A DNA stretch of 64,000 nt from Sphagnum compactum. Lineage: Eukaryota. Positions 1,552-63,600 of this stretch are shown in pieces. The translations under genes and the position numbers were made by a program. Positions within the stretch are counted from its first letter, which is position 1. Every line of letters starts with the position of its first letter. The notes below the pieces were generated by a model. That model did no database searches. It was not told the origin of the DNA and worked only from the letters and a program-made list of their open reading frames with translations. The stretch lies in contig OZ234493.1 of assembly GCA_965153455.1 (NCBI GenBank), positions 28,882,213-28,946,212 on the forward strand, written 5' to 3'.

Positions 1552-3472
1552 CGTCCCCCCCCCCCCACCGTGCCTTGGTCTCTTGTTCTCTTCTCTTCTC
1601 TTCTTCTCGTCCCTTCGAAGGAACAAAGAGAAGAAGAAGAAACGAATAAGAAGGGTTAGGGTTAGGGTTTGTCCGATTGAAGAAGGAATCGAAGAAGAAG
1701 AAGAAGAATTAGGTCATTACGCTTCTTAATTGGGCGGTTACCTGAGTTTGTTTTATAAGCCTCTGGTGCCGGTTATTCAAACTCTGGAAATCTTGTTGTT
1801 CCAGTTTCAAGAAAATTCAGAATCAAAGAACCTTCAATTCCAGTTTTTTTTGGGTCGGAAAGCCTCAAAGAGAACCCTGTGCTTTTCACGAAATAATTGG
1901 CAAAGAACTAGCAGAAGGTTACATGAAGGTTATTAGATCTTTTTGAGAACTGCAATTCCATATCAGAATCACTCCACAACCATGCTATCATGGATGATTA
2001 AAACATATAAATTCATTTTTCATGCATTTTTCATTCAAATCAAGTCACACAAGATCCACTTCTCATCCATTGTAGACTGCAATCAAGTTCACAGTTTACA
2101 CCGGTGTTCTGATTGTATCTGGTTTAGGACTTAAAAGTCTATGTAAGTGTAAATGCCATAATGAAATTTATTTGCACACCATGTAAACGTATAAGGTCCA
2201 TTTATACCCATGTCAGTGCAATTGTATATCACAGACAAATACACTTATGCAACTTTCTGCAGCTTTGTAAAAACACACCACTTCTGGTCTTCATTTTATG
2301 AGCAGTCCTTTTTCATGAGCCAGCCAGCCCAAGAATTGGGCACAAGAATAGTGACATCTAGGTGACCACATCACTCTTGGGTCCTCAGTGTGTAACTAAC
2401 ACCAATGGGCCCAAGCCAATGACACTCTGATCAGAGTCATGAAACCCTAGTAACACATTGTCAAGTAAATATGAACTTGTGAATAACTTCAACTGTACCA
2501 ACATTGCACACATATCATAAACATTCAGATGTTTGTCCAATAGATGTTTGTATCCTTTTACAACACCAGATCAATTTTGGGAACAATGTCAACACTAGTC
2601 CTTCAGAAAACATCTTGCAGCTGAGCATTGAATTTTGATACAATGCCCTTTCCACTACAGAACAAACAGAAGCAAAGAGAAAGCTCATGAATTGGCCCTT
2701 GATGCAAAACAATGGAAATCCTTTTTTTCTTACCTTTTTGTTCACATTGATACCTTGTCCAACTCCCTCTTTGAGCTTAGAACAAAAAATAAGCACCTCA
2801 GTCAAACGAATCAATAGCATAAGGCATTGCATTTTCATTTTCCCTCTCTAAAAGAGGTGAGAGGTACTTGCATGTAGTTGTGTACAAGCCATCATCCAAT
2901 TCAGGTAAGACTTGCACAGCTCATTGCAAAAAAGTACCTTCATATGAGAATCTCTATATGACTGAATGGTCAAAAGTCATCACTGGCTGCCAGTGGAAAA
3001 CATGAACGTACAAGGTATTACACTTGATCTTCAGATCTCCAAGTTGTGTTTCAAGCCCCTGCTCCGTCCATTTGCTTAGGTAACTCATGGATACTGCTGA
3101 CAGTAATGGAATCCTTACCACTAGATCAGCCCAAAACTGAGAATGCAATAATTACAGAGAAATTTGGGATTCCTATACGCCAGGTAGTGTTGGCAACCTG
3201 TATGTTCAATTTTGTTTCTTTTTTGATTTCCTTCCAAAACCCTGCTTGACAGGTGGGTCAGCAGCTTGTTGAAGAGATTCATCAGATACACCCTTGCCTG
3301 TATTGCCAGCATCATCAGTTGCCTCTTCACTGCAAATGAGCATCAAGAATGGCATCTTAGGTCTTCCATTGAAAGCAAACTCAATTGTGAAACAACCTCT
3401 GAAAGCTCATGGATTTGCATTTCAAAAACTTCCAGGGAACTTAGCAATGAATATTTGCATTTATGATAGAAC

Positions 3473-6400
3473 TCACTTGGGATCTTTCAATAGCTCAAGT
3501 TGCTCTATTGCTGTCTTGGCTGCATACAGCATCATCTTCTTCACCTGCATACAATTCAAATTTTACCATGAGTTTGCTATCCTATATGAAAGGTTTCATA
3601 CTTTGAGGTTTCAACTAAAACACAAGAAAGGCCTCACCTCTAGTTTATCTTCTTTTGCTCGATGATCCATAGGAAGCAGACGGAATTCCTCTGTCAGCTT
3701 AAGGCATTCTTGTACATTTTCAGGAGACACAAAATCGAGAGCAACCTTAATGCATGACTGCATCATCCACCACACACATAATGGTAAGAGAGGGAGAAGG
3801 CCACTTCATTGTAATTCAAATGTACCTCCCTGAACATTTCTCGCAGTTTTAAACTATACAGAATGGTTTAATACAGCTTATAATACAGTTTAAATCTGTA
3901 CAAGTATGTTCAAAGGTAAACTTGATCAATTTTGACCTCCTGAAACTTGTTTAGGTTCCAAAATGTAAGTAATGGCTTTCCAATTGTGAGGATAAGAACT
4001 TTAGGGGTAGTCTTGTCGTCTTGTCCATTAGGATGCATAAGGTATCATGGACAATCTGACAATATAAGCACCTCGACAACACTCTCACCTTCAAGTTGCG
4101 AACTTGATGAGGACAACCAGCAGGAATGAAGACTGCTTCACCATAATCCTGCTCAAAAGTCCATGCTTCAATTCCTGCAAACAATATTGCAAGTCAGAAT
4201 CCATCAAATAGTACGACAGAAAAGGTCGCCTTAGCAAGGCACCAGCAAATACTACGGTCGTGAGAAAACCATTTCCACTACTGAAATTTGAGAGCCAACA
4301 TGCTGGGGGATCTGTGTAAATCACCTAACAGTAAAGATGTCGAAGAGACTCAGCACATTCTGTGTATGATACCAACTTTGGATTCAACACTAATTTCAGC
4401 TAGTTTGGAAAATTGAGACTGCTCTAACCATGCTGTTGGGCAGAACAGAGCCACTATCTCCCTTTCAAGAATTCCAAACCAAATTCCTGTTCTCTCAAAA
4501 TCAGAGTAGATTGAGGCAACATGAAGATGAATTCAGACAATAATATTGACTTACCAAATTCCTCCTTTAACTTTCTCTTGTGCTCTTCATCCAAGAAAAA
4601 GGTTTGATCATGAATAGGGTGTGTAATCTGCCAATGGATTCCCAAGGGAAGTGAAATCAGGACTGCCATGAAGGCCCAAGTCAAATGAGTCTCAAAGAGG
4701 GATGAACTTTCAATCATGGTTAAAGGAAGCTTAGTGTACAGTGTAACAGAAGACTTAGAAGGGATCTTACAGATGGTACAGGCTTGCCATCTAAGTGCAG
4801 AAACTCCTTCCAGTGAATTCTCAAGTACTCCTTCAACTTTGGCACATCTTGTCGTCGAAATATGTCCCACAATGCCCCTCCATATTGGGCTCTGTCCTGA
4901 CCATTTGACAGTGACTCAGTTGCTGCACTCACTCCATTTCCCACTCCTTTGTTAGTCTCAGTGTGTAGGCATTCAATTCCAACTTCCATCGATGACTTCC
5001 CATTGTCAGGCTGTGCACTGGCACCATCCCTGGACCCTGTAAATAAGAGGGTTATCTTACCATTTGCAGGTAGTCCACTGTCCCCATTTGATTCCAATTT
5101 GCTGGATAAAACAGCATCTTGTATTTCTCTGTTGTTATCAATGGGCTGTTCAGTTCCAGCTCCAACTAGTGAGCACTTTTCAGAGTCCTTTGAACAAGGA
5201 GCCACATCTGTTTTGCCCACAGCACTTAAAGAATCCCTGCAGTCTGGTGTTGAGACTGGTTCATCCTTAGCTTCCTCCATATTATGGGCCTCACTTCTCT
5301 TGCTTTTCTTGAAGTCCTGAAGAAGTTTTTTTATCCTATTTTGTTGACGATAAGGATACTTGATCTCTGCAGTGTGTGTGAGAACATTCACCTGGTACAT
5401 TCCAACCTCTATTAAATTTGGGAACTGCTGTAAAAGACATGTTTTGGCATATAAGCAGGTTTGAAAGTCTGTATAGCAGCAACAGATAGAAGGAATGGCT
5501 CCAGAGGGCTCTATGCTTTCCTGCCAAAAAAACCTTTGAAGACTTATAAGCCTTGACAGCAAGCATCTTACCGCATCAGACATGTCACAGTGCAACTTGG
5601 TCACTGAATCACCTTTGCCAAGCTCCTCCTTAAGACCATATGCAATGTATGTTTTAGGACCCAAATCAGGTTTTATGGCATCTTTTGGTAACAGAGCAGC
5701 TAAATTGAGAAGACCATCCCTAGGATCTGTGTATTCATGAAATGGTAGTGAGGCAAGAAACTCGGCTTCATGACGTGGAAGGCGCTCTTCAAAATAGTTT
5801 GAGGGTGGCCAATCCTTGAGCTTCAACATTTCAGGCCATCCTCCAGGTTGAAGACGGCCTTCCTCATAGCCAGCAAAGAACTGATGAATATTGATCTCCA
5901 CCTGCAGTATGAAGCCTTAGCATCATATGTCTGTTATTATGGCACCCTATAAATCTGATTTGTCTCAAACCAAAGATTCTCCCAGCATAGAAAGAGGATG
6001 CATTTACCTCACGCCAATCCAAGCAATCGAGAGCTTTCACACTCTTAGTCTCCTCCTTGAATTTGTTCTTTGTAGTTTCCCGTACAGCACGCCACATAAC
6101 CATGGGTTCCCAGCTGAGACCACTGCCACCTTCTAGCACGTCACGGACTATAACAGGCTCACCTTCAATCCAATGTCTCTGAAAATGCACCAGACCCTCG
6201 GCCTCAACACTTTGTCGGGTAGGGCAGAAAAGATGATTGTCATGGCCACCTACTCGGTGAGCAGCAAGACGTAAATGCTTGCCACTGTCTGGGTCAGATA
6301 AATCACAAATTGAGCAGTGCATTGAATCCTGTTCCTTCAGGTTGTGGCATGTCGCAGCAATGTTTTCCGCATCAGTTGTCAACTTTGCCAACCAGTCAGG

Positions 6401-8323
6401 CTCAAACAAAGTTTTCAACTGTAGAGTATGCAGACCACCACAACCACCTTGTGACTTTGGAGGACAAGGAATTCTGCCACCCTGACCTGCTTCCCACAAA
6501 GGTAGTGGTGCAGGAACAGCATTCACCTCCATTGTATCTGCTTCTTTAATGTCATCCTGCAGTTGCAACTTCTGTTGTGCTGATTCTGATTGGTCTCCTC
6601 CTGGTTGGTGGCCCAGACGTAGTTCACGGCTGCAAGTCAGACACAAATCATAATCACAGCCTGAGCAGTTCCTATGGTAGTCCACAATTGATGTCTTGCA
6701 ATTATCACTGCACATCCAGAAAACCACACTGGCTGCTGTTAAATCCTCACATGGCACTGTTACCAAAAACACATTGTAAGGTGAACAAACACATTATCAC
6801 TAGACCATAATCAGTGTGAAATCAAGACAAACTTTGAAAGCAGAACAAGCTAAATCACCACTCAAACACATACTGGCAGTGATGTGCCACTTACCAGTAA
6901 AGGCGCTCATCCTTAGGAATCACTGCCTGTTCCACCTTCACAGTTGATGTCCCTGCAGAGACAACATGCACATACTCAGCACACACAATAAGCCACTGAA
7001 TAATGACTACTGCCAAAAGGTGAGACAAATGGGAGAACAAGGTACGTTGTAAGCTTCGCTCCAGTTTCAGCTCCTCACGCTGCTCCTGATGAAGTTGCTT
7101 CAAGCATGGTAGCAGCTTAAGGAGCAAATGCTTCAACACTTCAAGAGTCTCCTTCCTGCTCAACTTCACAGTTTCCTGTTACCCACCATATCACTCCATT
7201 ATTATACAGTTTCATTAACAAATAAAAGCATAACACTGAACACAGCCTTCCAGGATGCTGTATGTCACTTACCCTCTTTGGTCCACAGCTCCGGAGGCAA
7301 GCCTTGCAGTTACAGTTTTCACGGCAGAAAGGGCACTCCTGTGCCACATCCTCCTCTGACAGAAGTGGGTACCTGCATTGACACAAACATCAGCATAACC
7401 TCAAACACCAGCAAATGCTCCCATACTGCCACAAGATACCCATGTACATACCAGGTTTTGATACATGCAGAGCAATAGCGCTTGCGGTCACACTTGAGGC
7501 AGTATATCACATTCTGCTTGTCACTCCTCTGACATTGATGACACATTCTGCAACTATCTTCCTTCTCCTTTGTGCTTAGCTGCAGCACCAAATCAATATA
7601 GGCACACCTCCATCAACTACTCTACCAATATCCAGTACTGCTGTTCCAAACAATAGCAGCTTTTCTACGCAATTGAAGTGTGCAAACAGCTGTGCTGTTG
7701 CTCCCCTTCTGATTAAGTAGCCAGGGCACTTCTGTAATGTAATGGCTGAGGTAAAATCCCTGCCATGGGCAAATACATCACTGAACCTGCCCCACCTTAG
7801 CTGTAGAAAAGTTGCAATAAAACACCTATACATAGAGCTTCAGAATAAAAAAGACTTGCCAAATCCAATTCAGTAAAGACTTCTTAAGACTCACCTTATT
7901 TCCACCATTTTGGAGCTTCGCATTTCCACTGTCATCGGCTGAAAATTCTTCAGGGTCAGATTCTGCAGCCCTACCAGTTGATCGTCTTTGGGACTTTCCA
8001 GACAGGGAAAGATTGTAAGACTTACTCTCCTTGTTAGCAATAACTCTCTTCCTTGCATTTGGTTTGATGTTCTCTTCAGAAATAGTAGTCTTGACCACAG
8101 GCTTCTTAGGTTTTGTGTAGGTCTGTGTTCTGTTTCTTATTTGTATGTAATGATATTCACAGAGAGAACCTTGGAATATTCTCTTGCTACAGCGCCAGTC
8201 TCTTCCATCGGACCTCCTGCACCGTTGCTCATCTGGAACCTCATCTACCACTTTCCGACGCTTTGCTGTTTTACTGCTGCCTTTCATACCACTGTTTGAT
8301 GCATCATGTGGCCGTCGCCCCAT
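3473..8323 (-). CDS. KDM3/JHDM2-group JmjC histone H3K9 demethylase (JMJ25/IBM1-like): WRC, Cys-rich RING/zinc finger and JmjC domains, about 12 exons
   Basis: WRC motif [18 protein letters not shown]...CLKC...[112 protein letters not shown] at 8323, TGA at 3475-3473, canonical splice sites. Confidence 0.93.
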
Positions 8324-8469
8324 ATCCTCAATCCTCACCTGCCATTCAAGAAGCTGATTGAATGAAGAGTTTCCAGCAAGCAATCACCTTGGTGATGCTG
8401 GCCATGTTTAGGATCTTTGATGCAAGGGCAATTAAGAGAAATTCACATCCTACCACCAGAATAATGAGA

Positions 8470-8790
8470 CAAACAAACTTTGCAGAAACAAACAACATGT
8501 GAGAATTGGATGCACATGTTTGAGAGAAGCATTTGATTCTGATGCACCTTGCAAAAAACAGAAGATGGTGGTGGTGATCAGGCTCAACAAACTTTGCAGA
8601 ATCAAACAACATGATGTGAGAATCTGATGCACATGTCTGAGAAGCATTAGATTCTCTTGATCTGATGCACCTTGCAAAAACAGAAGATGGTTGGCAGTGG
8701 TGGTGGCAAACCATGCAGGTTCAACATGTGAGAATGTGATGCACGTGTCTGAGAAGCATTTGGTTCTCTTTGATCTGATGCACCTTGTGG
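8470..8790. repeat. Imperfect tandem triplication (~115-125 bp unit) between the thioredoxin exons and the JmjC gene
   Basis: The block gatgcacatgt(t/c)tgagaagcatt...ctgatgcaccttg occurs three times (~8509, ~8626, ~8738); caaaaaacagaagatgg occurs twice. Confidence 0.8.
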
Positions 8791-9021
8791 TAGGGCACTT
8801 CAAAAAATTGAATATGCAAAATCGTCTCCTTCCTCATGTCACGAAGTACAAAATCAAAGAGGTTCCAGAAAATAGAAGAAGAAGAAGAAGAAGAAGAAGA
8901 AAACACTAGGAAGGAGGAGGCTGTGGTAAAGAGGGTTTAGATCAGAGTTAGCAAGGCAATGGCTGCTTGATTGTCTGTGATCATGGATATTGAAGAAGAA
9001 GAAGAAGAAGAAGAATCTCAC

Positions 9022-9476
9022 CTGGACTTATCAACATCAACCTCGAGGAAGGTGAGAATGTCATATTTCTTGATCAGTTCTGAGAAAACTGGGGTCATAA
9101 GCCGACATGGTCCACACCAAGTTGCTGTGAAGTCTACCACAATCTGTGGACAAAAGTTTGTAATCTTCGTATGTTTGAGAACCAGGTGCAAGAACAAAAT
9201 GAGAAGAAGACAATGGTTACTACTACTGCTACTACTACTACACCTACTCTTCTTCTTCTTCTTCTTCTTCTTCTTCTTCTTCTCGCCACAAGTTTGTTTT
9301 CTTGCCAGAAGACATACTCAAAAACAGGGAGTTGTGAATTGGATTCACACAGAGAGAGACGGAGAGAGACAGAGAGAGATGCTCACAATCTTGCCACGGC
9401 TCTTGGCATCCTGGATCTTCGTCTCCCGGAGCAGCTTGCTATTCACCATATGCACATTGCCATGATCACCAGCCAT
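9022..9476 (-). pseudogene. Thioredoxin h exons 1 and 2 (exon 3 absent), probably joined to the JmjC transcript
   Basis: Exon 9476-9387 (90 nt) MAGDHGNVHMVNSKLLRETKIQDAKSRGKI|gtgagc. Exon 9143-9022 (122 nt) cag|[40 protein letters not shown]..|gtgaga with the canonical WCGPC active site. Confidence 0.88.
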
Positions 9477-12400
9477 GGTTGCTCCAAGACCACAACGGTG
9501 CACACCCCTCGCTCCCTGCCTCCTGTCCTCTTCCTTCCTTCGTTTTGTTTTGGTTGCTGTTACATTCCCTGAGATTAAACACAAGAAGAAGAGGAGCGCA
9601 GCAGGAGTAGGAGGAGGAGGAGGAGAAGACACACGGAAGCACAACCGTTGTGGACGCGCTATGCGCACAACAACAAAACGAGATCTAAAACCAACCGCGC
9701 AAAAACTAAAAACCTCCGATAAGATTTGTACTGTATTTGGAGGAACGCTTACCCACAGCATTGGAAGAACCCGCGCTGCATTTCCGTTTTCCGTTTTCCG
9801 AATTGCCCCGGGTCGGTTTTGTTTTGTTTTTTCTTTCCCCCGCCCCACCCCACCCCCATGCGATGCCCGGAGGGCACCCTCCAGATACCCTCCGGGTATC
9901 AAAACAAATGTTTTCTAGGGAAATTTTTTAATCGTCCTTTTTATGCCATGCAATGCCCTTGGCCACGGGCATTATCAGAGTCGGGTCTACCTTGACCTTG
10001 CCTTGCTTGGGCCCGGGCCCTTATAGCAATAATGGCTATGAACTTGAGCATTTCCCTACTACACATGCACACCTTCTTCACCTTCTTCTTTGATTGAAGC
10101 CTTGTTTTATTAGCCTTTGTTAAAAATAAATAGAAAAAAAATGCGTTGACAAACTCCCAAGCTTTTCACAACAAAGCAAATTTGTGGTTAACCCATGAAT
10201 CTCCATTGCGTCATGTTCATTTAGTATATTTTACCTACCACAAATCATGAAAACCACTTATCATAACCATGATTTACACCATATTACCAAAATTATATCA
10301 TCTTCTTATGCTCTCCCTATGCTTCAACGTTCCAACAAAGAATAAAGTTTAAGGTGACACCAATGAGCTTCTTTGTAAAGATTTTTTAAAAAAAGTTTTT
10401 AAGACTATAGCATCCTAGTCTTCTACCATTTTTAAAATGTAAATAATGGAATTGCTAGTCTACATGAAAGATGAGGTCCAAGCTAGAAAAATAAATTTTC
10501 ACAATGAAGATTTGGAGCAATGTAACATTTGCATTTTTGTTTGACAAGTTTGAACATATATTCGGAGTCTAACATGAAGGTAACAACGTAACAAAATTTG
10601 AAAACTTTTGTTATATATGTGAACAACACTCATTCTCCAACCAATGTGTAACATACCTCAAACAAGTGTAAAGACAAATTCAACAAAATCAATGACAAGT
10701 ACTATGTTGAAAAGAAGAAGACCAATGTCACAAGTACATGCTCCACCTTCAAACTAAGTTTGGTATGAAAAGATTCAATTACTTGTTTGTTTGATGATGA
10801 TGATCAAAGAGTCGACACTACTTATGAAGAGACTAATGAAAGTGTTTATGAAATTCAAGAAATCCTTATATCCTCAATGATGCAAATTTCTTCATTTGGA
10901 GATGGGATTGTATTTTCAAATCTTAGTTCCAATACACTAGAAACTAGGGCATGCAAGTTATTTGGCGTCCAAGGTCAACATAATAGAAAGTTGAAAAGAA
11001 AAAAATGAAAATGAACATTATTGTTGACCTTACCAAAGAATTTTTTTTTATTGGTGTGAAAGAAGTTGAAAAACTCAAAATGGAGATGATTGAGAAAATC
11101 AATTCACAAATGTTACATGTCAATTACAACTTGCAACTATGTTTGTCAATCATGTGTTGGAAGCCAAAGAAACCAATCCTAACAATCATTAATGATCAAA
11201 TGTTCATTTAAGTTCATTACATTACTTTCGTGTTTTCGATATGGCCAAAGTTATGTTGTATAATGCCTTTGCCATGTGCGGATGTTTATTCCAATAATGC
11301 ATGTGGCCTTGGGCAGTACCTTACATGTAAAGACCTAAATTTTTTTTACCTTTGTTATTTGTGATCCATAGTCAAACAAAATTTTGTGGACAAAATTTCC
11401 ATCGTGACAGATGAATTTTACGTTTGGGAATATGTTGTCCCTTTTTCAACTTGAAAGGGTGGGCGAAAAAATGGTGTAAATCCTTGTATTTATGTATGGG
11501 AAGGGCCTATTTTAAGTAAACAATCAAACCGTCATGGACATTCACCACAAAATGGACAAAAATGAATAATTTATAAGGTCAAAAGTCTTTCAGGGTTTCA
11601 ATATCTAATTGAAAAACCAATTGACTAAAGCCTCACCATCATTCATTAAAAAAAGGTTAATTAAAATAAACTTTGATATGTACCCATGAATTCATACCCC
11701 AAAAAATTGCACCCATTTTGGTAATATTATCATATTAATAAACGTTATATAAGCTTATTGCTCAATGGTTAGGTTGATAAAATTGTGTTTAAAAATTGTG
11801 TTGATCAAGGTTTCCCTTAATTTGAAGGTTGAGCCTTTAGGGTTGTGGCCTCACGGTATAGGCCCTAAAATTAAAGGAGACCTTTGGGAGCGTGCCTTCC
11901 CCAATGTAAAAGCATGAAAGGAAATGGTGGAATATTTGCATGTGATTGACGAAAAGGTCCAACATGAGAGAATTTTCTTTGTGAGGAGGTGTTTCCAATA
12001 CAAAGATATAACCTTCAAGTGCTTTATAATGTAATACTAGGGCATGATGTAGTTGGACCAAATCGACTGGCAAGTGGCAACCCTAATTCACATACATGGA
12101 TTTGTATGTGGAACCAAGTTAGATAGTAAACATTTTAAATGTGTGAACATGATTGATATTCCTTCCTTTTCCATGGAATCCATTCAAAATGATTTTGCAA
12201 AGGATGGAAACGAAAAGCAAAACATAATGGTCCGTGGAATAAGATAAGGATGTGAGGCATCTAATCAAAATGTCATTGGAATGGCACCTACAACGAGCAA
12301 TAAGAACTCTTATGAATTTCAACATCATAAGCCTAAGCATAAACACAACCGTGTCAAAATACAACAAGATGAACAAGAGTTTCAAAGTACACCAAATGAA

Positions 12401-13724: not shown

Positions 13725-14489
13725 TTAGGATTGCTGCAGAAGTTTCCTCAAGACAGCTTCTGCTCGAAGCTCTACCTTGGGAAGAGCCCAGTCATGTTGG
13801 ATAAGATCCAATCCATCTTTCTCAGCACCCAAGGTTTTGGCAGGATCTGCACCAAAGCCACCCATCTGCATGGCCATCTGTGATTGCATCAACCTTTGAG
13901 CATCATCCGTGGCGTTGTCCTCACCAAGGATGAGACTGAAGAGACCACGAAGACCAAACAGGTTCAAGAAATACCAAGAACGACTACTGACATAGCTCAC
14001 GTCCACGGAGCTCAAGTCGATGCCATTCTGCAGCATGCTACGAAACCTCTGTGTCAAAGGGAAGGGAATCTTGGCAGCAACGAAACCGGAGAAGAAGAAA
14101 TTCACCCAAGCGAAAGTAATGGTCTGAGGAATGATCATGGACAGATTCTTCTTCATCATGTCCATCGCCATGTTAGGGTCCGAGAACATTTGCGCTTGCA
14201 TGTTGGGAGCTTGATCTTTTGGCACATGCAACAATCCATTCTGCTCATTTGTATAATACGTTTTGCGCATCAGGAATGCTTTAGTCGGTATGAGATTGGC
14301 TCCTGCTCTCAAATACCTTGCTCTCAACACCACTTGCCCTTCCTTCAACGCCTTCATATCCGGATTCTGCGTCGTCCGCATCATCCTTGACACAAAATGA
14401 CGCAACACGCCGATGAGTACCATGACCACAGACAAAGGCACTAATACCCAGTCACGGATCTGCGTATCCAGCACCAAATCGTTCGCCAT
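13725..14489 (-). CDS. EMC3: ER membrane protein complex subunit 3, single coding exon, 254 aa
   Basis: MANDLVLDTQIRDWVL...FAWVNFFFSGFVAAKIPFPLTQRFRSMLQNGIDL...VSSRSWYFLNLFGLRG; typical EMC3/TMEM111 motifs in an uninterrupted ORF. Confidence 0.95.
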   Translation of the reverse strand: MANDLVLDTQIRDWVLVPLSVVMVLIGVLRHFVSRMMRTTQNPDMKALKEGQVVLRARYLRAGANLIPTKAFLMRKTYYTNEQNGLLHVPKDQAPNMQAQMFSDPNMAMDMMKKNLSMIIPQTITFAWVNFFFSGFVAAKIPFPLTQRFRSMLQNGIDLSSVDVSYVSSRSWYFLNLFGLRGLFSLILGEDNATDDAQRLMQSQMAMQMGGFGADPAKTLGAEKDGLDLIQHDWALPKVELRAEAVLRKLLQQS

Positions 14490-15039
14490 CTCCTCCTCCT
14501 CCTCTGGAAAAATCCCCACAACAACAAACCCTACAACAAAACACACACAACACAACCTCTTCTCTCTGCAAGCGCACCCTAAGAAAACGAAGAAGACGAC
14601 ATAATCCTCGTGCCTTCATGGATGAATCATCCACGAGCAATTTTCTTCCGGAGAAAAAAAAAGGAAATCATCCATAGTCGCCGACTAGTCGTCCCTGAGG
14701 ACCGATTTATCATCCATGAAGATCACTGGTTCACTTGTGTAATCTTTCGTCCCTGCTGCCACCGAGCATGTCTCGCGCGCGTTCGCGGGTCTCACTTTTT
14801 TCTCTTCTCCTTCGACGCAGATTTTGCCGCAGCGAGCTACTTTCACGCGCACAGTTTTATTTTATTTTATTGTTGCGCTTTATAATTTGGGTGCGCTCAT
14901 TGCATCATCAACTTCCTTTTGGATGCGATCCAATTGGGAGTTTTTGGTTTGTTGTGTATAGTCTAGACATGCTTCTTCTTGTTGTATTGACGGAAGCAGA
15001 TCGAGCTTTGGATTATGGCAGGTGGTGAGTGTCAAGGAT

Positions 15040-19001: not shown

Positions 19002-19619
19002 CTAGCCTGGAGGCCATTTCATTTGGCGACCGCCAAGCAAGTGCAAATGCAGGTGATAGACAGATTGACAGCCATTAGGGCCATCGTTGATGACCACGCG
19101 GAAACCATTATCCAGCCCTTCTTGATCTGCTACGCGTTTGGCCGCCAACAGGAGCTGACCTAACACGTCCTTATGCCTTGCATCGGCCTTGCTGAGCTGC
19201 GTCAAGCCGTCTCTCCGCTTGGGGATGAGAACCACATGGACGGGCGCTTGCGGATTGATGTCACGGAACGCCAACACGGATTCATCCTCGTACACCACGG
19301 AGGCGGGGATCTCCCTGCTCACTATCTTGTCGAATAAGGTAGGCGCCCCTGTGTCTAGCGTGACTGCTGCTGCCGCGGCCGTCTTAGCTGCAGCTTCTTC
19401 GTCTCCACTTCGGGCCTTCACCGCCGTGGTACTACTACTACTCCACAGCCTTTTTGAGCCTATTGCGGTGCCAGCTGCTGCAAGAAGACGTTGCCCACAA
19501 CTAGCTTTTTGCAAGCCTAAAACTGATTTGCAGCTCCGTGCTGCTGCTATTCCGCTGCTGCAGCACGGCACGATACCAGCCGCGTGCGCAGTGAGGCCCA
19601 GCAGCGCCCATCTCGCCAT
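19002..19619 (-). CDS. HINT2: Histidine triad nucleotide-binding protein with N-terminal transit-like extension (HINT2-like), single exon, 205 aa
   Basis: PTLFDKIVSREIPA...AFRDINPQAPVHVVLIPK...GFRVVINDGPNGCQSVYHLHLHLLGGRQMKWPPG; HxHxH triad; Ser/Ala/Arg-rich leader. Confidence 0.92.
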   Translation of the reverse strand: MARWALLGLTAHAAGIVPCCSSGIAAARSCKSVLGLQKASCGQRLLAAAGTAIGSKRLWSSSSTTAVKARSGDEEAAAKTAAAAAVTLDTGAPTLFDKIVSREIPASVVYEDESVLAFRDINPQAPVHVVLIPKRRDGLTQLSKADARHKDVLGQLLLAAKRVADQEGLDNGFRVVINDGPNGCQSVYHLHLHLLGGRQMKWPPG

Positions 19620-21599
19620 GCGTGATGGATGATGATATGTACTTGGGTGGTGGTGGTATGTAGGTATTCTCTCTCTCTCTCTCCTTCTTGCAAAACCCGC
19701 GATCACTACACCAATTGCACAAACTTACACTCATCTAGTAGCTACAAAATTGGATTCCAATTATTGTATACTCATATGCTGCGCATTCGAAACCATCTCC
19801 AACTCGTCAAATGATGAAAGCAGAGCCACGAGAATCGTGAACCAAGGCAGAAGCCGCGAGGACGACGACGACGACCCGAGAGGGTTCGAGCTTGGGAAGC
19901 GTCGCGTATAATACGGTCAGGACGTATGTACTTGTTCATTCAATACAATATATAAAATACGTACAATATATATTCCTGCACACAAACAAAATCAAATTTA
20001 CATACTCAATTTCACTACCAACTAAGAATTGCCAATATTAGTCTTACAAGGAAGATGACATTGGGAGTATAACCTATAATTGTTGTTTCCACTAGAATAG
20101 GTGACCTTACATGATTATTGAAGTTCACAACATGACAATGAAAAAAAATTCAATCATAAACAATCTCACATTTGACTTTTCACCTAAAATTGTAGTATCA
20201 CAAATGAATCAAATGGTCAATATGTAAGTGGAGGGATACTTGACTAGATGGATTGAGGAATCCTTTTCACAAGGATGGGGATTGATTTTTTTTTGTCACA
20301 TTTTATTAGCAATAATTTGGGCTTTTCACAACCAAAATAATTTGTTATACAATTTCATTGTTTGAACTCAAAGTCCAACATTATGGCCAACATGTTATGA
20401 ACATGAACAATTGTAGAAGTATTTAAAAGGTTAAAAAAAAAAGGCTAGCATATTGGTCGCTTTTGGACTCATGCAACCATGGAGGATCTTGAGCTCATCA
20501 TCAAATTGCAATGTAAAAAAAAAGCATACACATAGCTCAATGCTTGAAGTTAGCTCTAAGTTTCATGGATTTAGTAATAATAACATTCAAGGCATCAAAC
20601 AAGAACCCATAGCCTTTTTATTTAATTTAAAACACATTCTTCCACAATTTTTCTTCAAATATCCACCCCGTCCCATGTAATGGCCCAAGTCAACTCAATG
20701 AGACATTCATAAATCAAACATGACACTAGTTGGCACAAGTATAAAGGAAAGTTAACACAAATTTGTCCATGGACTTGTACATCATGGCCTATGAATATGT
20801 TAACTACTTACAACTTGGAAACTTGATATTGAACTTGTCCCTATCCAAACAAGAGATTGAAGCCATGGTAATCAAATGCTAAAAATGGCTCCACATGTCT
20901 GGGCTATATAAAAAAATCAAATCTTCTATAAATTCAAAATCATCCATGCAATTATGAACATAAGATTCATATTCACAAGACTACCTTATTTCATCAACTA
21001 CATCCACGCATCAAGATTGTGATCATGATGACAATTGGAACAATGTTGAAATAGGTGATTGACACCAACCACTATAGGCACAAAAAAATGGACACGTCTT
21101 ATTAAACAAACAATAATTTCATTCACATTATACACATCATCATTTATTCATGTTATCACATATGTTTTCAACAAACTATCAAACCAAAATGAATGCATAG
21201 AAATGATCGGACGACTACCTTAATAACATTTGTTGTTGTTGCATTCACCAAACATAACTATTGAAATGATTCGCACTTCCTTTCCTCGTTGCAATAGTCA
21301 CAACATCTACATTCAACCATTTAAAACTTAACCATGTTATGCTTGTGCAAGCAATATTTTGGACTTCAATGGATTGCTATGAAACTCTACAAGCTATAGG
21401 TCATAACAAGCATCCTTTCCATGGCAACAAGTACAAGAGTAACAAGCATAAAGGTCTAAACCTACCAATTCGAAAGGTTTTCGAATATCAATATTTTCAT
21501 AGGTTGGCACTGGTAGATTATGTTGTTTCTTATTTGTTTAAACTATTTAAAAACCTAACAATTTATTTAAAACACGCCTAAGCAATTAGTTCAAACCTT

Positions 21600-34000: not shown

Positions 34001-37000
34001 TAATTTCCTTGCCAAAAGGTTGAAAGAAATTTTTTTACACAAAATATTTCATTTTGATTCAAACATCAATATTTATAAAACTTAGTTTCCACCACCATTT
34101 GGAATTACTATATTATTTATAAGTTAAAGCATAAGTGAACAAACAAGTCAATGAGTTCCATTAACTTAATGTTTTGCAAATGCAGGGAATTTTAGTACCA
34201 TATGCCTCAACTATTCAATTATCAAACAACAACCATTACAAAATTGAGGATGCTAATCACTTGACAATTTGCAAGCCACCAAACAAAGATCATCCAAATT
34301 ATTCTTTATTGTTAAAATGTTTGAAAATATGTATGGAGGTAAAAACTTCAAATCTGAATCTTTTGATTTCATATATGTTCATGTAATTTGATACACATTA
34401 GGTCATAGCACACTTGATGTGTATCGCATACGCAATGTCAGATATATTTGTTATCAAATAAAAAAGATAACATATAAATGACCTATATTTTGTGAATTTT
34501 GACAGAAAAATATATTGCTTCCACGTTTGCCATATCATGAGGTGGCGTTGATTGGCAAAGCAAAAGACATAAACATCTTGTTACAAAAGGAATATATTAT
34601 TGGTTTGGTTGGAATGGGTGGGATTGGGAAAACCACTTTGTGCAAAAAATTCTATCATTTGTTCCACAACCAATATGACAAATCTAGTTTTTTAGAGGAT
34701 GTGAAATCAAAAGACAATATTAACGATGTCATAAAACAACTCCTACATGATTTGTGTGGGATATGCAAGGATAAAACTGTGAATCAAGATGACCTTGACC
34801 GAATTAGGCAATGTATGATATCGGAAAAAGTGTTAATGGTGGTGGATGACGTTGGTAAAGCAGAGAACCTTACATCCTTGCAACTTCTCATTGATACCAA
34901 GAATGCAACTCCTAAAAGCAAAGTACTTGTGAATTGTCGAAATTGGCAAATTTTGAAATCTCATGTAAGTGAAGATGGAAAAGTGGTCATGAAATCTTTG
35001 GAAGAAAAACAAGCAAGGGAACTATTTATGTTCCATGCATTCGGTAATGCAAATCATGTTCCAACAAAGGATTTCAAAGATATATGTATGAAGATTATAA
35101 AAGCTTGTGGGGGGCTCCCTTTAAGCCTTAAAGTATTGGGTTCTTTTTTGTGTAATATTAAAGAGTTAGAAATTTGGGAAGGTGCATTAAGCAAATTGGA
35201 AAGTGGGCAAAGCTTCACTGGGGGCAATGATAATGAAGAACTTTGGAGTAAATTGAAGATTTCTTATGACCATTTGGATAAGGAACATCAAAACATGTTT
35301 TTGGATATTGCTTGTTTTTTGGGTGGTTTGAAAATAAGTACAATTTGTCGAGTGTGGAGTGGAGATTATTTATACCCAAGGTTTGCATTACAAAATTTGC
35401 AACATAGATCTTTAATCCAATGGGTAGAAGGTGGAATCTTGTACATACATGAACAATTACGAGACATGGGACAATATATTGCAAGGGAACCTCCAATTAT
35501 GAATCGATTTATATGGAAATCAAATATGTCAAAAAAAAATTTACAAAAGGATGAGGTTGTCACCATACTATTTCAATCCTATAATTTTATTATGATATCC
35601 TATGATTTCTTTTGATGTCCAAAACCAAATGCTTTAAATTTGAATCTTGATTTTATAAATACAGGCTTTTTTAATAAATTTGGCACTAGGATGAAATGTT
35701 TTTTTGTATTGATAATCCTTTTGTTTTCATTTCATGTGATAGGTGATGGAAAATTTAGAAGGCATCTCATTGAAAAAATGTGTCAAGTTGCCTACATTGT
35801 CCCAAATTAGTTCAAAGGGATTTCGCAACCTTAGGTTGCTTGACCTAACAGAAGCTTCACCAACTATCGTGGAAAATTGCATCCAAGGGAGAAATTTGAA
35901 TAATGTTAAATGGTTGTGCCTCAAGAACTGCATGATTCAAAAATTGCCAAATAATTTGTTTAATTGTTTCCAAATACAAGTACTTGATTTGGCACAATGC
36001 CAAAGTTTGGAAGAAATACCTTCATCTATTGGCCAATTAAATGCACTCCAAGAGCTTGATTTGTCGTGGTGTAAAAAATTGCAAAAATTGCCCCCATCTA
36101 TTGGCGAATTGAATGCACTCGCACAACTTGATTTGTCACAGTGTTCCAACTTGAAAGAACTACCTTCATCTATTGGCCAATTGAACGCACTCCAAAAGCT
36201 TCAATTGTCGCAATGTTCCAACTTGAAAGAACTACCTTCATCTATTGGCCAATTGAACGCACTCCACACGCTTGATTTGTCACGGTGTTCCAACTTGAAA
36301 GAACTACCTTCATCTATTGGCCAATTGAACGCACTCCAAAAGCTTCAATTGTCGTAATGTTCCAACTTGAAAGAACTACCTTCATCTATTGGCCAATTGA
36401 ACGCACTCCACACGCTTGATTTGTCACGGTGTTCCAACTTGAAAGAACTACCTTCATCTATTGGCCAATTGAACGCACTCCAAAAGCTTCAATTGTCGTA
36501 ATGTTCCAACTTGAAAAAACTACCTTCATCTATTGGCCAATTGAACGCACTCCAAAAGCTTCTTTTGTCGAACTGTTCCAACTTGAAAATACTACCTTCA
36601 TCTATTGGCCAATTGAACGCACTCCAAGAGCTTAATTTGCGGGGGTGTTTCTACTTGAAAGAATTACCTTTATCTATTGGCGAATTAAACGCACTACAAC
36701 AACTTGTTTTGTCAAAGTGTTCTAACTTGAAAGAACTACCTTCATATATTGGCCAATTGAACGCACTCCAAGAGCTTTATTTGTCAAGGTGTTCCGACTT
36801 GAAAAAACTACCTTCATCTATTGGCCAATTGAACACACTCCGAAACCTTAATTTGAAGGGGTGTTTCCACTTGAAAAAATTACCTTCATCTATTGGCCAA
36901 TTGAATGCACTCCAAATTCTTAAATTGTTAGGGTGTTCAAACTTGAAAAAACTACCTTCATCTATTAGCCAATTGAACACACTCCAACAGCTTCATTTAT

Positions 37001-40000
37001 GGGGGTGTTCCAACTTGAAAGAACTACCTTCATATATTGGCCAATTGAACACACTCCACACGCTTGATTTGTCAGAGTGTTCCAATTTGAAAGAACTACC
37101 TTCATCTATTAGCCAATTGAACGCACTCCACACGCTTGATTTGTCACGGTGTTCCAACTTGAAAGAACTACCTTCATCTATTGGCCAATTGACAACACTC
37201 CAAGAGCTTGACTTGTTAGAATGTTCAAACTTGAAAGAACTATCTTCATCTATCGGCCAATTAAACGCACTCCAAGAGCTTAATTTGCGGGGGTGTTCCA
37301 ACTTGAAAAAACTACCTTCATCTATTGGCCAATTGAATGCACTTCAAAAGCTTGATTTGTCATGGTGTTCCAACTTGAAAGAACTACCTTCATCTATTGG
37401 CCAATTGAACACACTCCAAGAGCTTCATTTATGGGGGTGTTCCAACTTGAAAGAACTACCTTCATCTATTGGCCAATTGAACGCACTCTCAGAGCTTGAT
37501 TTGTCATGGTGTTCCGACTTGAAAGAACTACCTTCATCTATTGGCCAATTGAATGCACTCTCACAGCTTGATTTGTCATGGTGTTCTAACTTGAAAGAAC
37601 TACCTTCATCTATTGGCCAATCAAATGCACACCCACAACTTGATTTGTCAAGGTGTTCCAGCTTGAAAGAACTACCTTCATCTATTGGCCAATTGAATGC
37701 ACTCTCACAGCTTAATTTGTCATGGTGTTCTAACTTGAAAGAACTACCTTCATCTATTGGCCAATTGAACGCACTCCAAAAGCTTCAATTGTCGCAATGT
37801 TCCAACTTGAAAGAACTACCTTCATCTATTGGCCAATTGAACGCACTCCACACGCTTGATTTGTCACGATGTTCCAACTTGAAAGAACTACCTTCATCTA
37901 TTGGCCAATTGAATGCACTGTCACAGCTTGATTTGTCCAGGTGTCCCCTATTGAAAAAACTACCTTCATCTATTGGGCAATTGAACATAATCCAAAAGCT
38001 TAATTTGTCATGGTGTTCCGACTTGAAAGAAATACCTTCATCTATTGGCCAATTGAACCCACTCCACACGCTTGATTTGTCACGGTGTTCCAACTTGAAA
38101 GAACTACCTTCATCTATTGGTCAATTGAACGCACTCCACACGTTTGATTTGTCACGGTGTTCCAACTTGAAAGAAGTACCTTCATCTATTGGCCAATTGA
38201 ACGCACTCCACACGCTTGATTTGTCACGGTGTTCCAACTTGAAAGAAGTACCTTTATCTATTGGCCAATTGAACGCACTCCACACGCTTGATTTGTCACG
38301 GTGTTCCAACTTGAAAGAACTGCCTTCATCTATTGGCCAATTGAACGCACTCCAAAAGCTTCAATTGTCGCAATGTTCCAACTTGAAAGAACTAACTTCA
38401 TCTATTGGCCAATTGAACGCACTCCAACAGCTTAATTTGTGGGGGTGTTCCTACTTGAAAGAACTACCTTCATCTATTGACCAATTGAATGCACTTTCAC
38501 AGCTTCTTTTGTCAGAGTGTTCTAACTTGAAAGAACTACCTTCATCTATTGGCCAATTGAACGCACTCCACACGCTTGATTTGTCACGGTGTTCCAATTT
38601 GAAAGAACTACCTTCATCTATTGGCCAATTGAACACACTCCGAAAGCTTAATTTGTGGGGGTGTTTCTACTTGAAAGAATTACCTTCATCTATTGGCCAA
38701 TTGAATGCACTTCAAATTCTTAATTTGTTAGAGTGTTCAAACTTGAAAGAACTACCTTCATCTATTAGCCAATTGAACACATTCCAACAGCTTCATTTAT
38801 GGGGTGTTTCAACTTGAAAGAACTACCTTCATCTATTGGCCAATTGAACGCACTCCACACGCTTGATTTGTCAGGGTGTTCCAATTTGAAAGAACTACCT
38901 TCATCTATTGGCCAATTGAACGCACTCCAAGAGCTTAATTTGCGGGGGTGTTTCTACTTGAAAGAATTACCTTTATCTATTGGTCAATTAAACGCACTAC
39001 AACAACTTGTTTTGTCAAGGTGTTCTAACTTGAAAGAACTACCTTCATCTATTGGCCAATTGAATGCACTTCAAGAGGTTGATTTGTTAGGGTGTTCCAA
39101 CTTGAAAGAACTACCTTCATGTATTGGCCAATTGAATGCACTCCAAGACCTTGATTTGTGAAAATGTTCGAGCTTGAAGGAAGTATCTTCATTTATTGGC
39201 TAATTGAACGCACTTTAAAAGCTTCATTTGTGGGAGTGTTAGAACTTGAAAGAACTACCTTTATTTACTAACCAATTGAATGGAATCCAAGAGCTTGATT
39301 TGTCAGGGCGTTCGAACTTGAAAGAACTACCTTCATCTATTGGCAATTGAATGCACTTCAAACGTTTGATTTGTCAAGGTATTCCACTTGAAAAAACTAC
39401 CTTCATCTATTGGCCAATTGAATGCACTCTAAGACCTTGATTTGTAAAAATGTTCAAACTTGAAGGAAGTATCTTCATTTATTGGCCAATTGAATGCACT
39501 CCAAGAGCTTGTTTTATCAGGGTGTTTGAACTTGAAAGAATTAGTTTTATCTATTGGTCAATTGAATGCACTCCAAAAGTTTGATTTGTTAAGGTGTACC
39601 AACTTGAAAGAAGTACCTTCATGTATTAGCTAATTGGATGCAATCCAAAAGCTTGATTTGTTAGGGTGTTACTATTTGAAATAATTACATTTATGTATTG
39701 GCCAATTGAATGCACTCCAAAAGTTTTATTTGTACGAGTGTCGCAACTTGAGAGAACTGCTTTCATCTATTAGCGAATTGAAATCACTGCAAATCTTTAT
39801 TTATAAGATTTTTGCCACTTGAAAACATCATGAAATAAGTACATTCATCTAGGGGCGAATTGAATGCACTCAAAGTGCTTCATTTGTCAAGGTGATTTAA
39901 CTTGAAATAACTACTTTCATTTATTTACTAGTTGAATACATTCCAAGAAAGCTTCATTTGTTAGGGTGTTCCAACTTGAAAAAACTACTTTCATTTGTTA

Positions 40001-60625: not shown

Positions 60626-63600
60626 ACCTGTGTATTCTTTCAAATGTACACAACACTAGCATTGATTCAATTAGCTTGCAGTTCTGGCGATGCGACTACA
60701 TGGCACCCCGACCAAGTACACTTGCCTATCTTCAACACTCTACACTTCACTTTCAATGTTGGGGAGGAGGAGGTACCATGTAATTTGACTCAAGTTGTTT
60801 CTGATACACCTAAATAAACAATTATAACCTTCTACGAATCTGCGCAGTTGGATAGTGGAGAACCCAATACACCAGGTTCTTCAAACACACTTTCTAACTC
60901 CATTCCATGTGTTTCCAACTACCCTTTCGTTATGGGGAACTAGCTCACCAAGAAGGAGAGAGACCAGGTCACAGACTTGTTAATTAAGCATGAAAATGTG
61001 TTCGCATTCTCAATGAAAGACTTAGGTAGGTGTAAGACCATGCAATTTTCTATAGACCTTACAGATGAGACACCCATCTATCGGAGGAGGCATAGGTTGA
61101 GTAAACATGAATGGGAACTGGTAGATGAAAGATGCAAAAAGTTCCATGAGGCTGGTCTCATTTAGCCATCAAGTTCTGATTTCGCAGTCGCTATAGTAAT
61201 GCCATCAAAAAAGGATTCAGCTGGATTATGGACTGAGAAAAGGATGTGCGAGGATTATAAGCCTTTGAACCTGGTTACACCTCAAGACAGGTACCCCATG
61301 CCCATCCCTAAAGAATTGATTGATATTATTGGAGATTTAAACATCTTCACAATTGTGGATCTGAGGCAAAACTTCAACTACATTGTGCTCGTTGCGAAGG
61401 ATCGTAAGAAAACGACATTCCATGGAAGCAACAAGTTGTGGGAATGGCTTGTGATGCCTTTTGGATTGAAGTATGCACCTGTCTTCTTTTAGCGAGTCAT
61501 GGACTAGGTTCTCGAAGGGGCATATTTCCTGAAATGCTACATAAATGACATCCTAGTGCATAGCAAGGGACTCCTGCAGCACTTGGCTCATCTTGAGGAG
61601 TTATTCAAGAGGCTCCATGAAGTCAATATGAAGATCCATCCTAAAAAGTGTGAGTTTGTTGTCACCTCAATAGTCTACTTTGGGCATAGAATTTTGCCAA
61701 ATGGTATTATGGCTCATTGGGCCAAAGTAGTAGCCATTTTGGAGATGCCCAATCCTATTGATGTTCACACTTTGAGGAGTTTCATCAGACTATGTAATTA
61801 TTACAAGATTTGTGTCCAAGACTTAAGTACTATCGCTCATCCTCTCTATGCATTATTAAAGAAGGATGTTGCTTGGACACGGAGTGAAGAGGCTCAGGAA
61901 GCTTTCAACACACTCAAGGAAAAGATTTCAGAGTTCCCCATTTTAAGAAGACCTGATTTTAGCAAGGTTTTCATTCTACACACTAATTGGAGTGCTCTTG
62001 GTATTGGTGCTATTCTTCGCCAACTTGATGAGGAAGGCAAGGAATATGTTATCGCCTATGCATTCCGAAGCAACAACAAGGCTGAGAGCAACTACTTTTC
62101 ATACGAGGGGGACTGTCTTGTTGTTGTATGGGCCATCATACATTTCAGGCCCTATCTTTATGGCACCAAATTCACTTTGTATATCGACCACCAGCCTATC
62201 AAATGGTTGATGACCAACGACAAGCTTATTGGCAAGTTAGCTCGTTGGGCGCTTATACTTTAGGAGTAAGAGTTCAAGGTTATTCACCGACCTAGTATTA
62301 CACATCAGAACGTAGATACCATGTCGCAAAGACCCCTCACTACCTCTGAAGATTTCTCAAAAGCCAAGCAAGATTTCGACTAGATTCCAGCAGTACATGT
62401 ATCTTATGCATCTAGTTATCTTGCACTACTGCAATGTGACTTGGTTGAACATCCCATTGTGGATATATGGGAGGACTTGGACACTCTGAGGTTTTTTCAG
62501 CATGGGGAATACCCTCCCCAAGTTACATTAAGTCATCGGGATTGCATATAATAGTGGTCCAAATGCTACTCATGGAGGGACAATCACCTCGTCCGATGCT
62601 TACCACAAGGTGATAGAGTGGTTCCTCCACCACATGAACGGCTTGGTCTTATTCAGAAGGTACACTCGGAGCTTGGACACTTTGGAGTTAAACGTACTTA
62701 TAGCCTTTTCGTTCCTCATTACCATTGGAGAGGTATGTATGTTCAAGTTCGAAACGTCATTGCTAGGTGTGAACAATGTGATAGGGTGAGATCTTCCTTC
62801 TCCTTTTGACAGCTCACGCTTTCTCCACTCCCTATTCAGGGCATGTTCTATTGCTGGTCATGTGATTTAGCTGGAGAGTTACCACAGACCTCCAAGGGTA
62901 ATGTCTACATCATGATTATGATTGAACATTTTTCAAAGTGGGTCGAGCTTGTTGCGCTACCGGACAAATCCTCACACAGCACCAGCCAAACTTTTTTACA
63001 ACAAGTCCTAATTAAGTAGGTTTGGGGCTTGTGCTGAGTGCTTTACTGATCAAGGATCAAAATTCAAAGGAGAATTCCAAGACCTACTTGATCATGCTCT
63101 CATTGACCATTGCCGGACTTCAAGGGATCATCCCCAAGCTGATGGCCTTGCAGAGAGGATGGTTCAGACATGCAAGAAAGGACTTCGAAAAATTTGCCTC
63201 ATTGGGAACAAAGAGGATTGGGACTTGGCCCTACCTTACATCGCCATAGGTTACAGGATGACCAAGCACGCCTCTTTGTCTCATTTATCTCCTTACTTTC
63301 TACTTTTTGGGAGACATCCCATTCCACCCTCTTCCATTGCTGCTCAAATGGACCAGGTTTGTGGACTTGGACTCCCCAGCCACTTGGGCTAGGGTCATCG
63401 CAGAGAGGGCTGCTATATTCAGGAGGGTTATGCCCATGGCCATGGAGAACTTGTCCATTGCACAACATTGAGACACCTTACGGTATGCATACACACATGA
63501 GGTGGTAATTATAAACTTAAAGTGAGACAAGTTGATGTTGGTGACTTTGTGTATCTTTAATGGCAACCTAATGATACTTTATACACTTCTTCCGGTCGCA

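Follow-up and report, generated by a model that had tools for sequence, protein, structure and literature searches.

The stretch of DNA considered here comprises 64,000 nucleotides (nt) of Sphagnum compactum (contig OZ234493.1, positions 28,882,213 to 28,946,212; hereafter the window, over whose whole length all coordinates are counted). It probably harbors a composite gene, in which the relic of a thioredoxin h (Trx) gene supplies the promoter, the leader and two exons to the mRNA of a downstream WRC-JmjC gene, this mRNA carrying an upstream open reading frame (uORF) of 71 codons. RNA covers the Trx exons as well as the JmjC exon on the same strand. In the mechanism that we propose, a Sphagnum Trx-h paralogue would have been truncated such that exons 1 and 2 were kept, exon 3 and the terminator were lost, and exon 2 ended up one base short, and the remnant would now act as promoter and 5′ leader of the WRC-JmjC (JMJ25/KDM3-like) gene behind it, its two exons serving as leader exons. 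The primary transcript would begin upstream of the Trx ATG, exon 1 would be joined to exon 2, and exon 2 (9022) to the acceptor at 8340/8339, such that the mature mRNA would hold first the Trx-derived 71-codon uORF, ending with the TGA at 8337-8335, and then the JmjC open reading frame (ORF).

A preliminary description of the window, made from the sequence alone, had already proposed a chimeric gene. The version of that proposal with a uORF has gained support from same-strand RNA and from the arithmetic of assembled RNA contigs, whereas the version in which a fusion protein is masked by a sequencing error is contradicted by the 122-nt frame of exon 2, which is found in three assemblies. The features of the unit are as follows (X22 is a set of polyA RNA reads described below).

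9477-9660, minus strand: 5′ leader ahead of the Trx ATG; X22 depth 4.56 (9484-9567) and 0.18 (9568-9651), repeats masked at 9583-9634
9560-9565, minus strand: minimal upstream ORF, ATG-TAA, in the Trx leader; carried only by transcripts whose start lies upstream of 9565
9387-9476, minus strand: Trx-h exon 1, 90 nt, 30 codons; tblastn match to paralogue P0023, X22 depth 8.62
9144-9386, minus strand: intron 1, GT..AG, 243 nt, rich in microsatellites; X22 depth zero over 9148-9315
9022-9143, minus strand: Trx-h exon 2, 122 nt, WCGPC intact; CACAG before and donor GTGAGA after it, X22 depth 7.42
8339-9021, minus strand: intron from Trx exon 2 to the first coding exon of the JmjC gene; 5′ and middle parts homologous to intron 2 of the Trx paralogue
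8472-8691, no strand assigned: tandem repeat within this intron, 117 nt, 1.9 copies, 83% matches; the same element lies in intron 2 of the Trx paralogue
8330-8341, minus strand: acceptor CAG followed by GTGAGGATT, a near-copy of the 12-mer at the exon-2 donor
8335-8337, minus strand: stop codon (TGA) that closes the 71-codon uORF once the mRNA is spliced, directly after ...DKSR of the Trx frame
7895-8338, minus strand: first coding exon of the JmjC gene; WRC domain (Pfam 1.2e-13), ATG 8323-8321, second in-frame ATG at 8287
3209-7582, minus strand: remaining exons of the WRC / zf-4CXXC_R1 / JmjC gene (JMJ25/KDM3-like), placed by tblastn of P0012, P0017 and three other orthologue models

The thioredoxin h relic and its exon 2

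Exon 1 begins with an ATG at 9476 in the context ACCATGG, encodes MAGDHGNVHMVNSKLLRETKIQDAKSRGKI and is followed by the donor GTGAGC. Exon 2 codes for 40 residues and two leftover bases, and it matches the Pfam family Thioredoxin (PF00085) on its own, with an E value of 1.1e-12. When exon 2 was used as a query among longer proteins, two groups were returned, the orthologous products of the relic and a paralogue. The orthologous products P0018 (71 aa), P0019 and P0020 represent spliced exons 1 and 2 from other assemblies and carry the joint ...SRGKI|IVVDF between them; P0020 furthermore is an in-frame read-through of sequence equivalent to the leader. The transcript begins at roughly 9570-9660. 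Since the protein encoded by the two exons is 85% identical to the Sphagnum paralogue P0023, their likeness to Trx is not due to chance. Sequence, Pfam and tblastn thus bear out every coordinate that had been given for exon 1 (90 nt) and exon 2 (122 nt, with WCGPC) and for their good splice sites.

The relic resembles plant thioredoxin h (PF00085) over its first 70 residues, has the WCGPC motif and places introns 1 and 2 where P0023 has them, but it is without the C-terminal 40% of the fold, and its exon 2 ends with a frameshift. P0018 spans positions 16-61 of the 103 positions of PF00085, whereas the paralogue P0023 spans 5-99; 42 of the 103 positions, the xMPTF loop among them, are missing from the relic. 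It has neither the complete Trx fold with the xMPTF cis-Pro loop, the C-terminal strands and the helix, nor the three-exon structure with a phase-0 boundary between exons 2 and 3 that is found in the Sphagnum paralogue. Because only these Pfam positions are covered, the 71-aa product is unlikely to be an active thioredoxin, and to label it 'thioredoxin 1', as one source does, is misleading.

As had been suspected, exon 3 is absent from the 64-kb window, in which tblastn of three full-length Trx h proteins (P0023, P0029 and P0032, the latter two more distant; E≤10) gave exons 1 and 2 only. A complete Trx gene, with exon 3 located outside the window or beyond the JmjC gene, can appeal to nothing beyond the fact that the window ends at 64 kb, and we regard it as extremely improbable: tblastn returned no exon 3, the next 5 kb downstream are taken up by the JmjC gene on the same strand, and a phase-0 exon 3 like that of the paralogue would be out of frame after an exon 2 of 122 nt. 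The idea that the start of the JmjC exon is itself a remnant of Trx exon 3 was dropped, as tblastn detected no similarity at E≤10.

The length of exon 2 is central to the interpretation of the locus. P0018-P0020 end with ...VDVDKSR or ...VDVDESR and then a stop, which is the same frame as that of the 122-nt exon. The paralogue P0023, in contrast, reads ...VDVDEVQ|EVTTEWEIRAMPTFLFIKDGK... and continues into a complete thioredoxin h, and its genomic read-through products P0024 and P0027 place the donor in phase 0 after 41 codons, which corresponds to an exon 2 of 123 nt; for the Sphagnum paralogue, the length given as usual in the preliminary description thus holds. The intron after exon 2 in the window opens with the same GTGAGATTCTTC... 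as the read-through of the paralogue. Compared with the paralogue, the window copy is missing a base close to where exon 2 ends, with a shift of the frame as the consequence. In none of four RNA runs (X22, X1, X5 and X9) was there an insertion or deletion row within exon 2 (9023-9143). The 122-nt exon thus is not an assembly error, because three independently assembled orthologous products share its frame and the RNA is free of indels; the frame is real.

These results speak against the proposal that the main product is an in-frame Trx-JmjC fusion protein, and that the 122-nt exon represents an assembly error or a rare allele. This proposal has its attractions, since exon 2 of the paralogue has 123 nt and ends in phase 0, and a single extra base would yield the in-frame sequence ...VRIEDMGRR. 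However, we give it almost no credence. P0018-P0020 are three independent assembled products with the 122-nt frame, and neither the raw reads of X22 nor the contigs of X1, X5 and X9 have indel rows in exon 2. Furthermore, there was no Trx-JmjC fusion among the 23 Trx matches in longer proteins, and PF00085 occurred in none of the 120 listed JMJ relatives from other plants. The suggestion that a base is missing through error or in one allele therefore had to be given up.

With respect to selection on the relic, of the 71 residues 3 differ from the window in P0018, 3 in P0019 and 5 in P0020. WCGPC is intact in the window and in two of the three orthologous products, but P0019 has WCGLC. At the protein level, all differences seen among the orthologues are replacements, one of them inside the redox motif, and at three positions (W17R, A47T and K64E) the relic has changed where P0023, P0029 and P0032 all agree. 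Between the window and the RNA runs, there are three nucleotide differences in the Trx exons (mapped by hand), namely the replacements L15Q (10 of 10 X22 reads) and Q22E and one silent change. The reading frame of the relic is open in the window and in all three assembled products, but because divergence is low, an open frame cannot separate constraint from recency. A scan of metagenome contigs with an alignment of the Trx products retained 80 loci, all of them distant Trx relatives (35-64% identity) and none a Sphagnum contig, the patterns being too general.

Probable splicing of the relic to the JmjC exon

The exon from 8338 onward begins with GTGAGGATTGAGGAT, continues with the ATG at 8323 and encodes 143 residues. 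In order to follow transcription across the locus, four RNA runs, chosen among runs containing the 6.8-kb locus, were aligned to 7300-9800. X22 consists of stranded polyA raw reads with the same species label, whereas X1, X5 and X9 are Logan contigs from metatranscriptomes of different studies. Repeats at 8865-9022 and 9213-9381 were masked in the read alignment, and joints beside masked repeats were dropped.

In X22, 80 reads aligned, and the first mate was on the plus strand in all of them, which means a single direction of transcription. The depth was 4.6 in the leader, 8.6 in exon 1, 0 in intron 1 and 7.4 in exon 2, it was zero in seven bins across 8392-8979, with 8865-9022 masked, and across the JmjC exon it ranged from 2.8 to 19, coverage beginning at the acceptor. 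Exon 2 is thus present in polyA RNA without coverage behind it, and it therefore is spliced onward. The acceptor at 8340-8339, which had been predicted to open the JmjC exon with the WRC domain, has its AG in place, coverage of the JmjC exon starts there, and the contigs break at this site. Within the JmjC gene, the joint 7579>7895 was found in 12 X22 reads as well as in contigs of X1 and X5, and the joint 7369>7449 in 7 X22 reads.

The argument for the joint 9022>8338 comes from the assembled runs. The contigs behave as pieces of a 31-mer graph, in which neighbours overlap by 30 letters, as is seen for records 4 and 5 of X1 and for records 11, 12 and 13 of X5. Record 4 of X1 (8062-8341, depth 84.1) ends in a fork at the acceptor. 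One branch, record 5 (8312-8547, depth 10.7), enters the intron, while record 7 (110 nt, depth 72.3) matches 9023-9104 and leaves 28 letters unplaced at its low-coordinate side. Because exon 2 and the intron both end with CAG, the 30-letter node 8312-8341 is identical to 8312-8338 plus 9022-9024. If this node leads into exon 2, 27 + 1 = 28 letters are therefore expected before 9023, and 28 are what record 7 has. Record 7 does not run into the intron, since the depth of X1 is zero in 8728-8895. Furthermore, the depths of the two branches, 72.3 and 10.7, add up to nearly 84.1, and from their ratio, roughly six of every seven molecules covering the 5′ end of the JmjC exon would include Trx exon 2. 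In X5, record 8 contains the joint 7579>7895, its match to the genome ends at 8339, and 24 unplaced letters follow; record 11 has 6 unplaced letters before 9023, and 24 + 6 = 30 is the overlap that is expected if both records cross 8338|9022. On the strength of this arithmetic, the joint 9022>8338 is very likely. Of the junction reads from 9022 to 8338 that the preliminary description had named as a check, the contig breaks and the unplaced lengths give an equivalent that fits, while an explicit joint row was not obtained.

Several points weigh against this interpretation. The table of joints is without a row for 9022>8338, and the junction letters themselves were never observed, though this is uninformative, because the joint 9387>9143, which is certain, is likewise missing beside the masked repeats. 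X22 is shallow, with its 80 reads, and its depth climbs from about 6 (8224-8307) to 17-19 (7888-8139); an additional transcript start inside the JmjC exon is conceivable. In X5 and X9, contigs span most of the intron at one third to three quarters of exon depth; this signal is unspliced RNA or DNA, and X9 holds intron 1 of the JmjC gene, too. Finally, most annotated orthologue models start with MKGSSK (ATG 8287) or MGRRPHD and are without the Trx leader, although protein records show no untranslated regions.

Most of these points could equally be cited in favor of two separate transcription units, in which the Trx remnant would be an expressed pseudogene or a non-coding RNA, either terminating behind exon 2 or spliced to some other site, and the JmjC gene would have its own start at about 8340: most orthologue protein models begin at the JmjC exon, the joint row was not reported, and the depth of X22 climbs along the JmjC exon. 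We nonetheless consider two units unlikely. A transcript start precisely at an AG acceptor would be a coincidence, record 8 of X5 extends by 24 letters past 8339 that are unlike the adjacent genome, the branch depths of X1 form a sum (72.3 + 10.7 as compared to 84.1), the unplaced lengths of 28 and of 24 + 6 fit the joint exactly, and coverage by polyA RNA is absent after exon 2.

Splicing of the relic to the JmjC exon would also explain why gene models disagree between Sphagnum species, in that they start with MGRR, with MKGS, or with an invented N-terminus in the Trx leader. The latter is seen in models P0009 (S. jensenii) and P0013 (S. troendelagicum), in which about 50 residues are taken from the Trx 5′ leader region in another frame and are spliced into the middle of the first JmjC exon. 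Both are likely ab initio artefacts, and in linking JmjC to the Trx 5′ region they lend the chimeric unit weak support. The members of the JmjC cluster from JGI are uninformative on the 5′ end, as all seven examined were internal genomic fragments.

The upstream reading frame and its expected effect on translation

Given the joint 9022>8338, the uORF stops 11 nt ahead of the JmjC ATG, and the earlier statement that an exon 2 of 122 nt yields a 71-aa uORF ending just before that ATG turned out to be accurate (TGA 8337-8335). With the joint as inferred, it is an AUG-started ORF of 71 codons that lies wholly in the spliced 5′ leader. The leader has ten ATGs before the main ATG, including the ATG-TAA at 9565-9560, and the context of the Trx ATG is the best among them. 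Under ordinary scanning, leaky scanning to 8323 is implausible, and reinitiation after 71 codons with a spacer of 11 nt should be poor. Translation of JmjC would thus have to use inefficient reinitiation, because a strong uORF AUG (ACCAUGG) and nine further AUGs precede the main AUG; perhaps reinitiation would occur at Met13 (8287). In the frame of JmjC, the spliced mRNA has stops two codons ahead of the joint, and therefore no product of an alternative start could reveal the junction.

By the general rules of nonsense-mediated decay (NMD) in plants, the chimeric mRNA would be expected to have features of an NMD target. Translational gating by the uORF and NMD are predictions from the structure of the leader: with its long uORF, strong start context and ten upstream AUGs, the mRNA is predicted to show low, conditional translation and sensitivity to NMD. 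Plant uORFs of more than 35 aa can trigger NMD (PMC3315328). A preprint argues that Arabidopsis mRNAs with uORFs behave unlike NMD targets.

A different role for the upstream frame would be that of a bicistronic mRNA of the CDC26-TTM3 type, in which the 71-aa Trx fragment is a selected small protein or a redox-sensing nascent peptide and JmjC is translated as well. In its favor, the window and two of the three orthologous products retain both the frame and WCGPC, the context of the uORF AUG is strong, and bicistronic plant mRNAs exist (PMC9768141; PMC11892635). However, this alternative seems improbable to us. The motif of P0019 is WCGLC, the differences among the orthologues at the protein level are all replacements, the relic has W17R, A47T and K64E as compared to P0023, P0029 and P0032, and 42 of the 103 Pfam positions, including the xMPTF loop, are gone. 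That the 71-aa peptide is itself functional is improbable. Considered as a conserved-peptide uORF, the relic was seen within Sphagnum only, in three products that differ at 3-5 of 71 residues.

The acceptor and its surroundings have a peculiar structure. The donor of exon 2, CAG|GTGAGATT (9014-9024), and the acceptor, CAG|GTGAGGATT, match at 11 of 12 letters if one gap is allowed, and this 12-letter pattern has 4 matches in the window as compared to 0.84 expected. Since the acceptor and the first letters of the exon nearly equal the exon-2 donor, a donor-like site has been rebuilt at the joint, and 3′ and 5′ splice-site consensus sequences are directly juxtaposed (CAG|GTGAGG at 8341-8333). This looks like a recursive splice site or like the scar of a microhomology event. 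Recursive splice sites are characterized by a juxtaposed AG|GTRAGT. The Sphagnum acceptor shares this arrangement, as GTGAGG follows directly after it, but differs in that an ordinary coding exon follows, which is retained in the mRNA (joint 7579>7895).

Just before the JmjC ATG, TGAGGAT occurs twice in tandem (8326-8339, minus strand), and a weak second acceptor, GAG, lies 5 nt downstream of the first one (AG 8335-8334), use of which would set Trx codons 1-70 in frame with JmjC. With the 122-nt exon, this AG is the sole surviving route to a Trx-JmjC fusion protein, and one of low probability. It could form part of a working regulatory module, in which the Trx remnant gives rise to a minor in-frame Trx(1-70)-JmjC isoform through AG 8335-8334, and/or in which redox state or splicing choice is linked, through the WCGPC nascent peptide or the rebuilt donor-like site, with the output of an H3K9-type demethylase, but we see little prospect of this.

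Origin of the joint, related systems and neighbouring genes

The distance from exon 2 to the acceptor AG (8340-8339) is 681 nt, and the exon begins at 8338. Intron 2 of the paralogue translates like 9020-8480 of the window, the 117-nt repeat included, and this resemblance places the breakpoint between about 8470 and 8340. In S. fallax, the paralogue model P0022 takes the 117-nt repeat as its terminal coding exon in place of the true exon 3. Two courses of events are possible. Either a deletion took Trx exon 3, the terminator and whatever preceded the JmjC exon, or only Trx exons 1-2 were ever duplicated before the JmjC gene. In the first case, a 5′ exon of the JmjC gene might have been co-deleted: the Sphagnum proteins have about 30 residues before the WRC domain, as compared to about 90-110 in the relatives from Physcomitrium and Ceratodon (P0041, P0042). 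The case for such an exon is weak, because the fern relative P0048 is equally short before WRC.

The arrangement is common to species of several Sphagnum subgenera. The cluster of the JmjC exon at 90% identity contains models from S. jensenii, S. troendelagicum, S. magellanicum, S. tenellum and S. compactum, the exon is 98% identical to a protein of Sphagnum balticum, and in well-aligned exons the protein of the window is 97-100% identical to its Sphagnum orthologues. The JmjC gene runs through about ten further exons, down to about 3200-3500. In the orthologue P0017, the order WRC, zf-4CXXC_R1 and JmjC is present (Pfam 1.1e-12, 7e-05 and 1.2e-12), and inspection by eye shows an HxD-like LHCDMSD and, further along, CPHQ as candidates for the residues that bind Fe(II) and 2-oxoglutarate. 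An optional block of about 50 residues (...GNGVSA) and the C-terminal exon vary between orthologue models (P0012 as compared to P0017; 4768-5391 and 3209-3763 of the window, minus strand), which suggests alternative splicing or inconsistent annotation in the 3′ half of the gene.

The nearest kind of transcript that has been described is that of the Arabidopsis read-through RNAs generated by intergenic splicing (PMC9768141, Kurihara et al. 2022), in which neighbours on the same strand are co-transcribed, the first ORF is favoured in translation, and the RNAs are sensitive to NMD. The likeness consists in two same-strand neighbours in one RNA. However, both Arabidopsis genes are whole and have their own mRNAs, whereas in Sphagnum the first gene is a stump and the first ORF a fragment. 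Monocistronic mRNAs of both genes were not found here, there being no Trx exon 3 or terminator and no polyA RNA coverage past exon 2. With the last exon and the terminator of the first gene gone, the joint transcript appears to be the main form in Sphagnum, if not the only one.

A second parallel is AT2G29290, whose uORFs descend from a partial copy of the gene's own 5′ end (PMC6041940). There, too, the leader ORF was left by a truncated copy of a gene, has an intron at its boundary and originated by exon shuffling, but the remnant stems from the 5′ end of the host gene itself, whereas that in Sphagnum stems from an unrelated thioredoxin h, promoter included. The mRNA of CDC26-TTM3, as cited in PMC9768141, likewise has a protein-coding ORF as a uORF before an unrelated main ORF. 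CDC26, however, is complete, functional and conserved across plants, as opposed to the Sphagnum uORF, which is a truncated domain seen within the genus only. A literature search on Sphagnum thioredoxin and uORFs and on Sphagnum JmjC/JMJ25 found no description of this locus; the kind is known, and its Sphagnum member appears to be undescribed.

The locus stands for the reuse of a remnant and for a correction of annotation, and not for a new mechanism. The 3′ end of a duplicated Trx-h copy would have disappeared, while what is left of it, the promoter and two exons, would now front the gene of a chromatin modifier across Sphagnum, such that expression of the putative demethylase presumably is under a thioredoxin-type promoter.

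Other genes in the window include two on the same strand as the Trx-JmjC unit, namely an ORF for an EMC3/TMCO1-like membrane protein (13728-14615, minus strand; 1.8e-51) and an ORF with a HIT domain (19005-19724, minus strand; 8.8e-27). On the plus strand, 34503-38817 holds a candidate NLR-type resistance gene with NB-ARC (1.1e-31), a Roq1-like winged helix and then long ORFs with leucine-rich repeats (LRR_14 2.4e-112), and 61508-62260, perhaps from about 57000 onward, holds a retroelement fragment with reverse transcriptase and RNase H domains (RT_RNaseH 9.1e-31).

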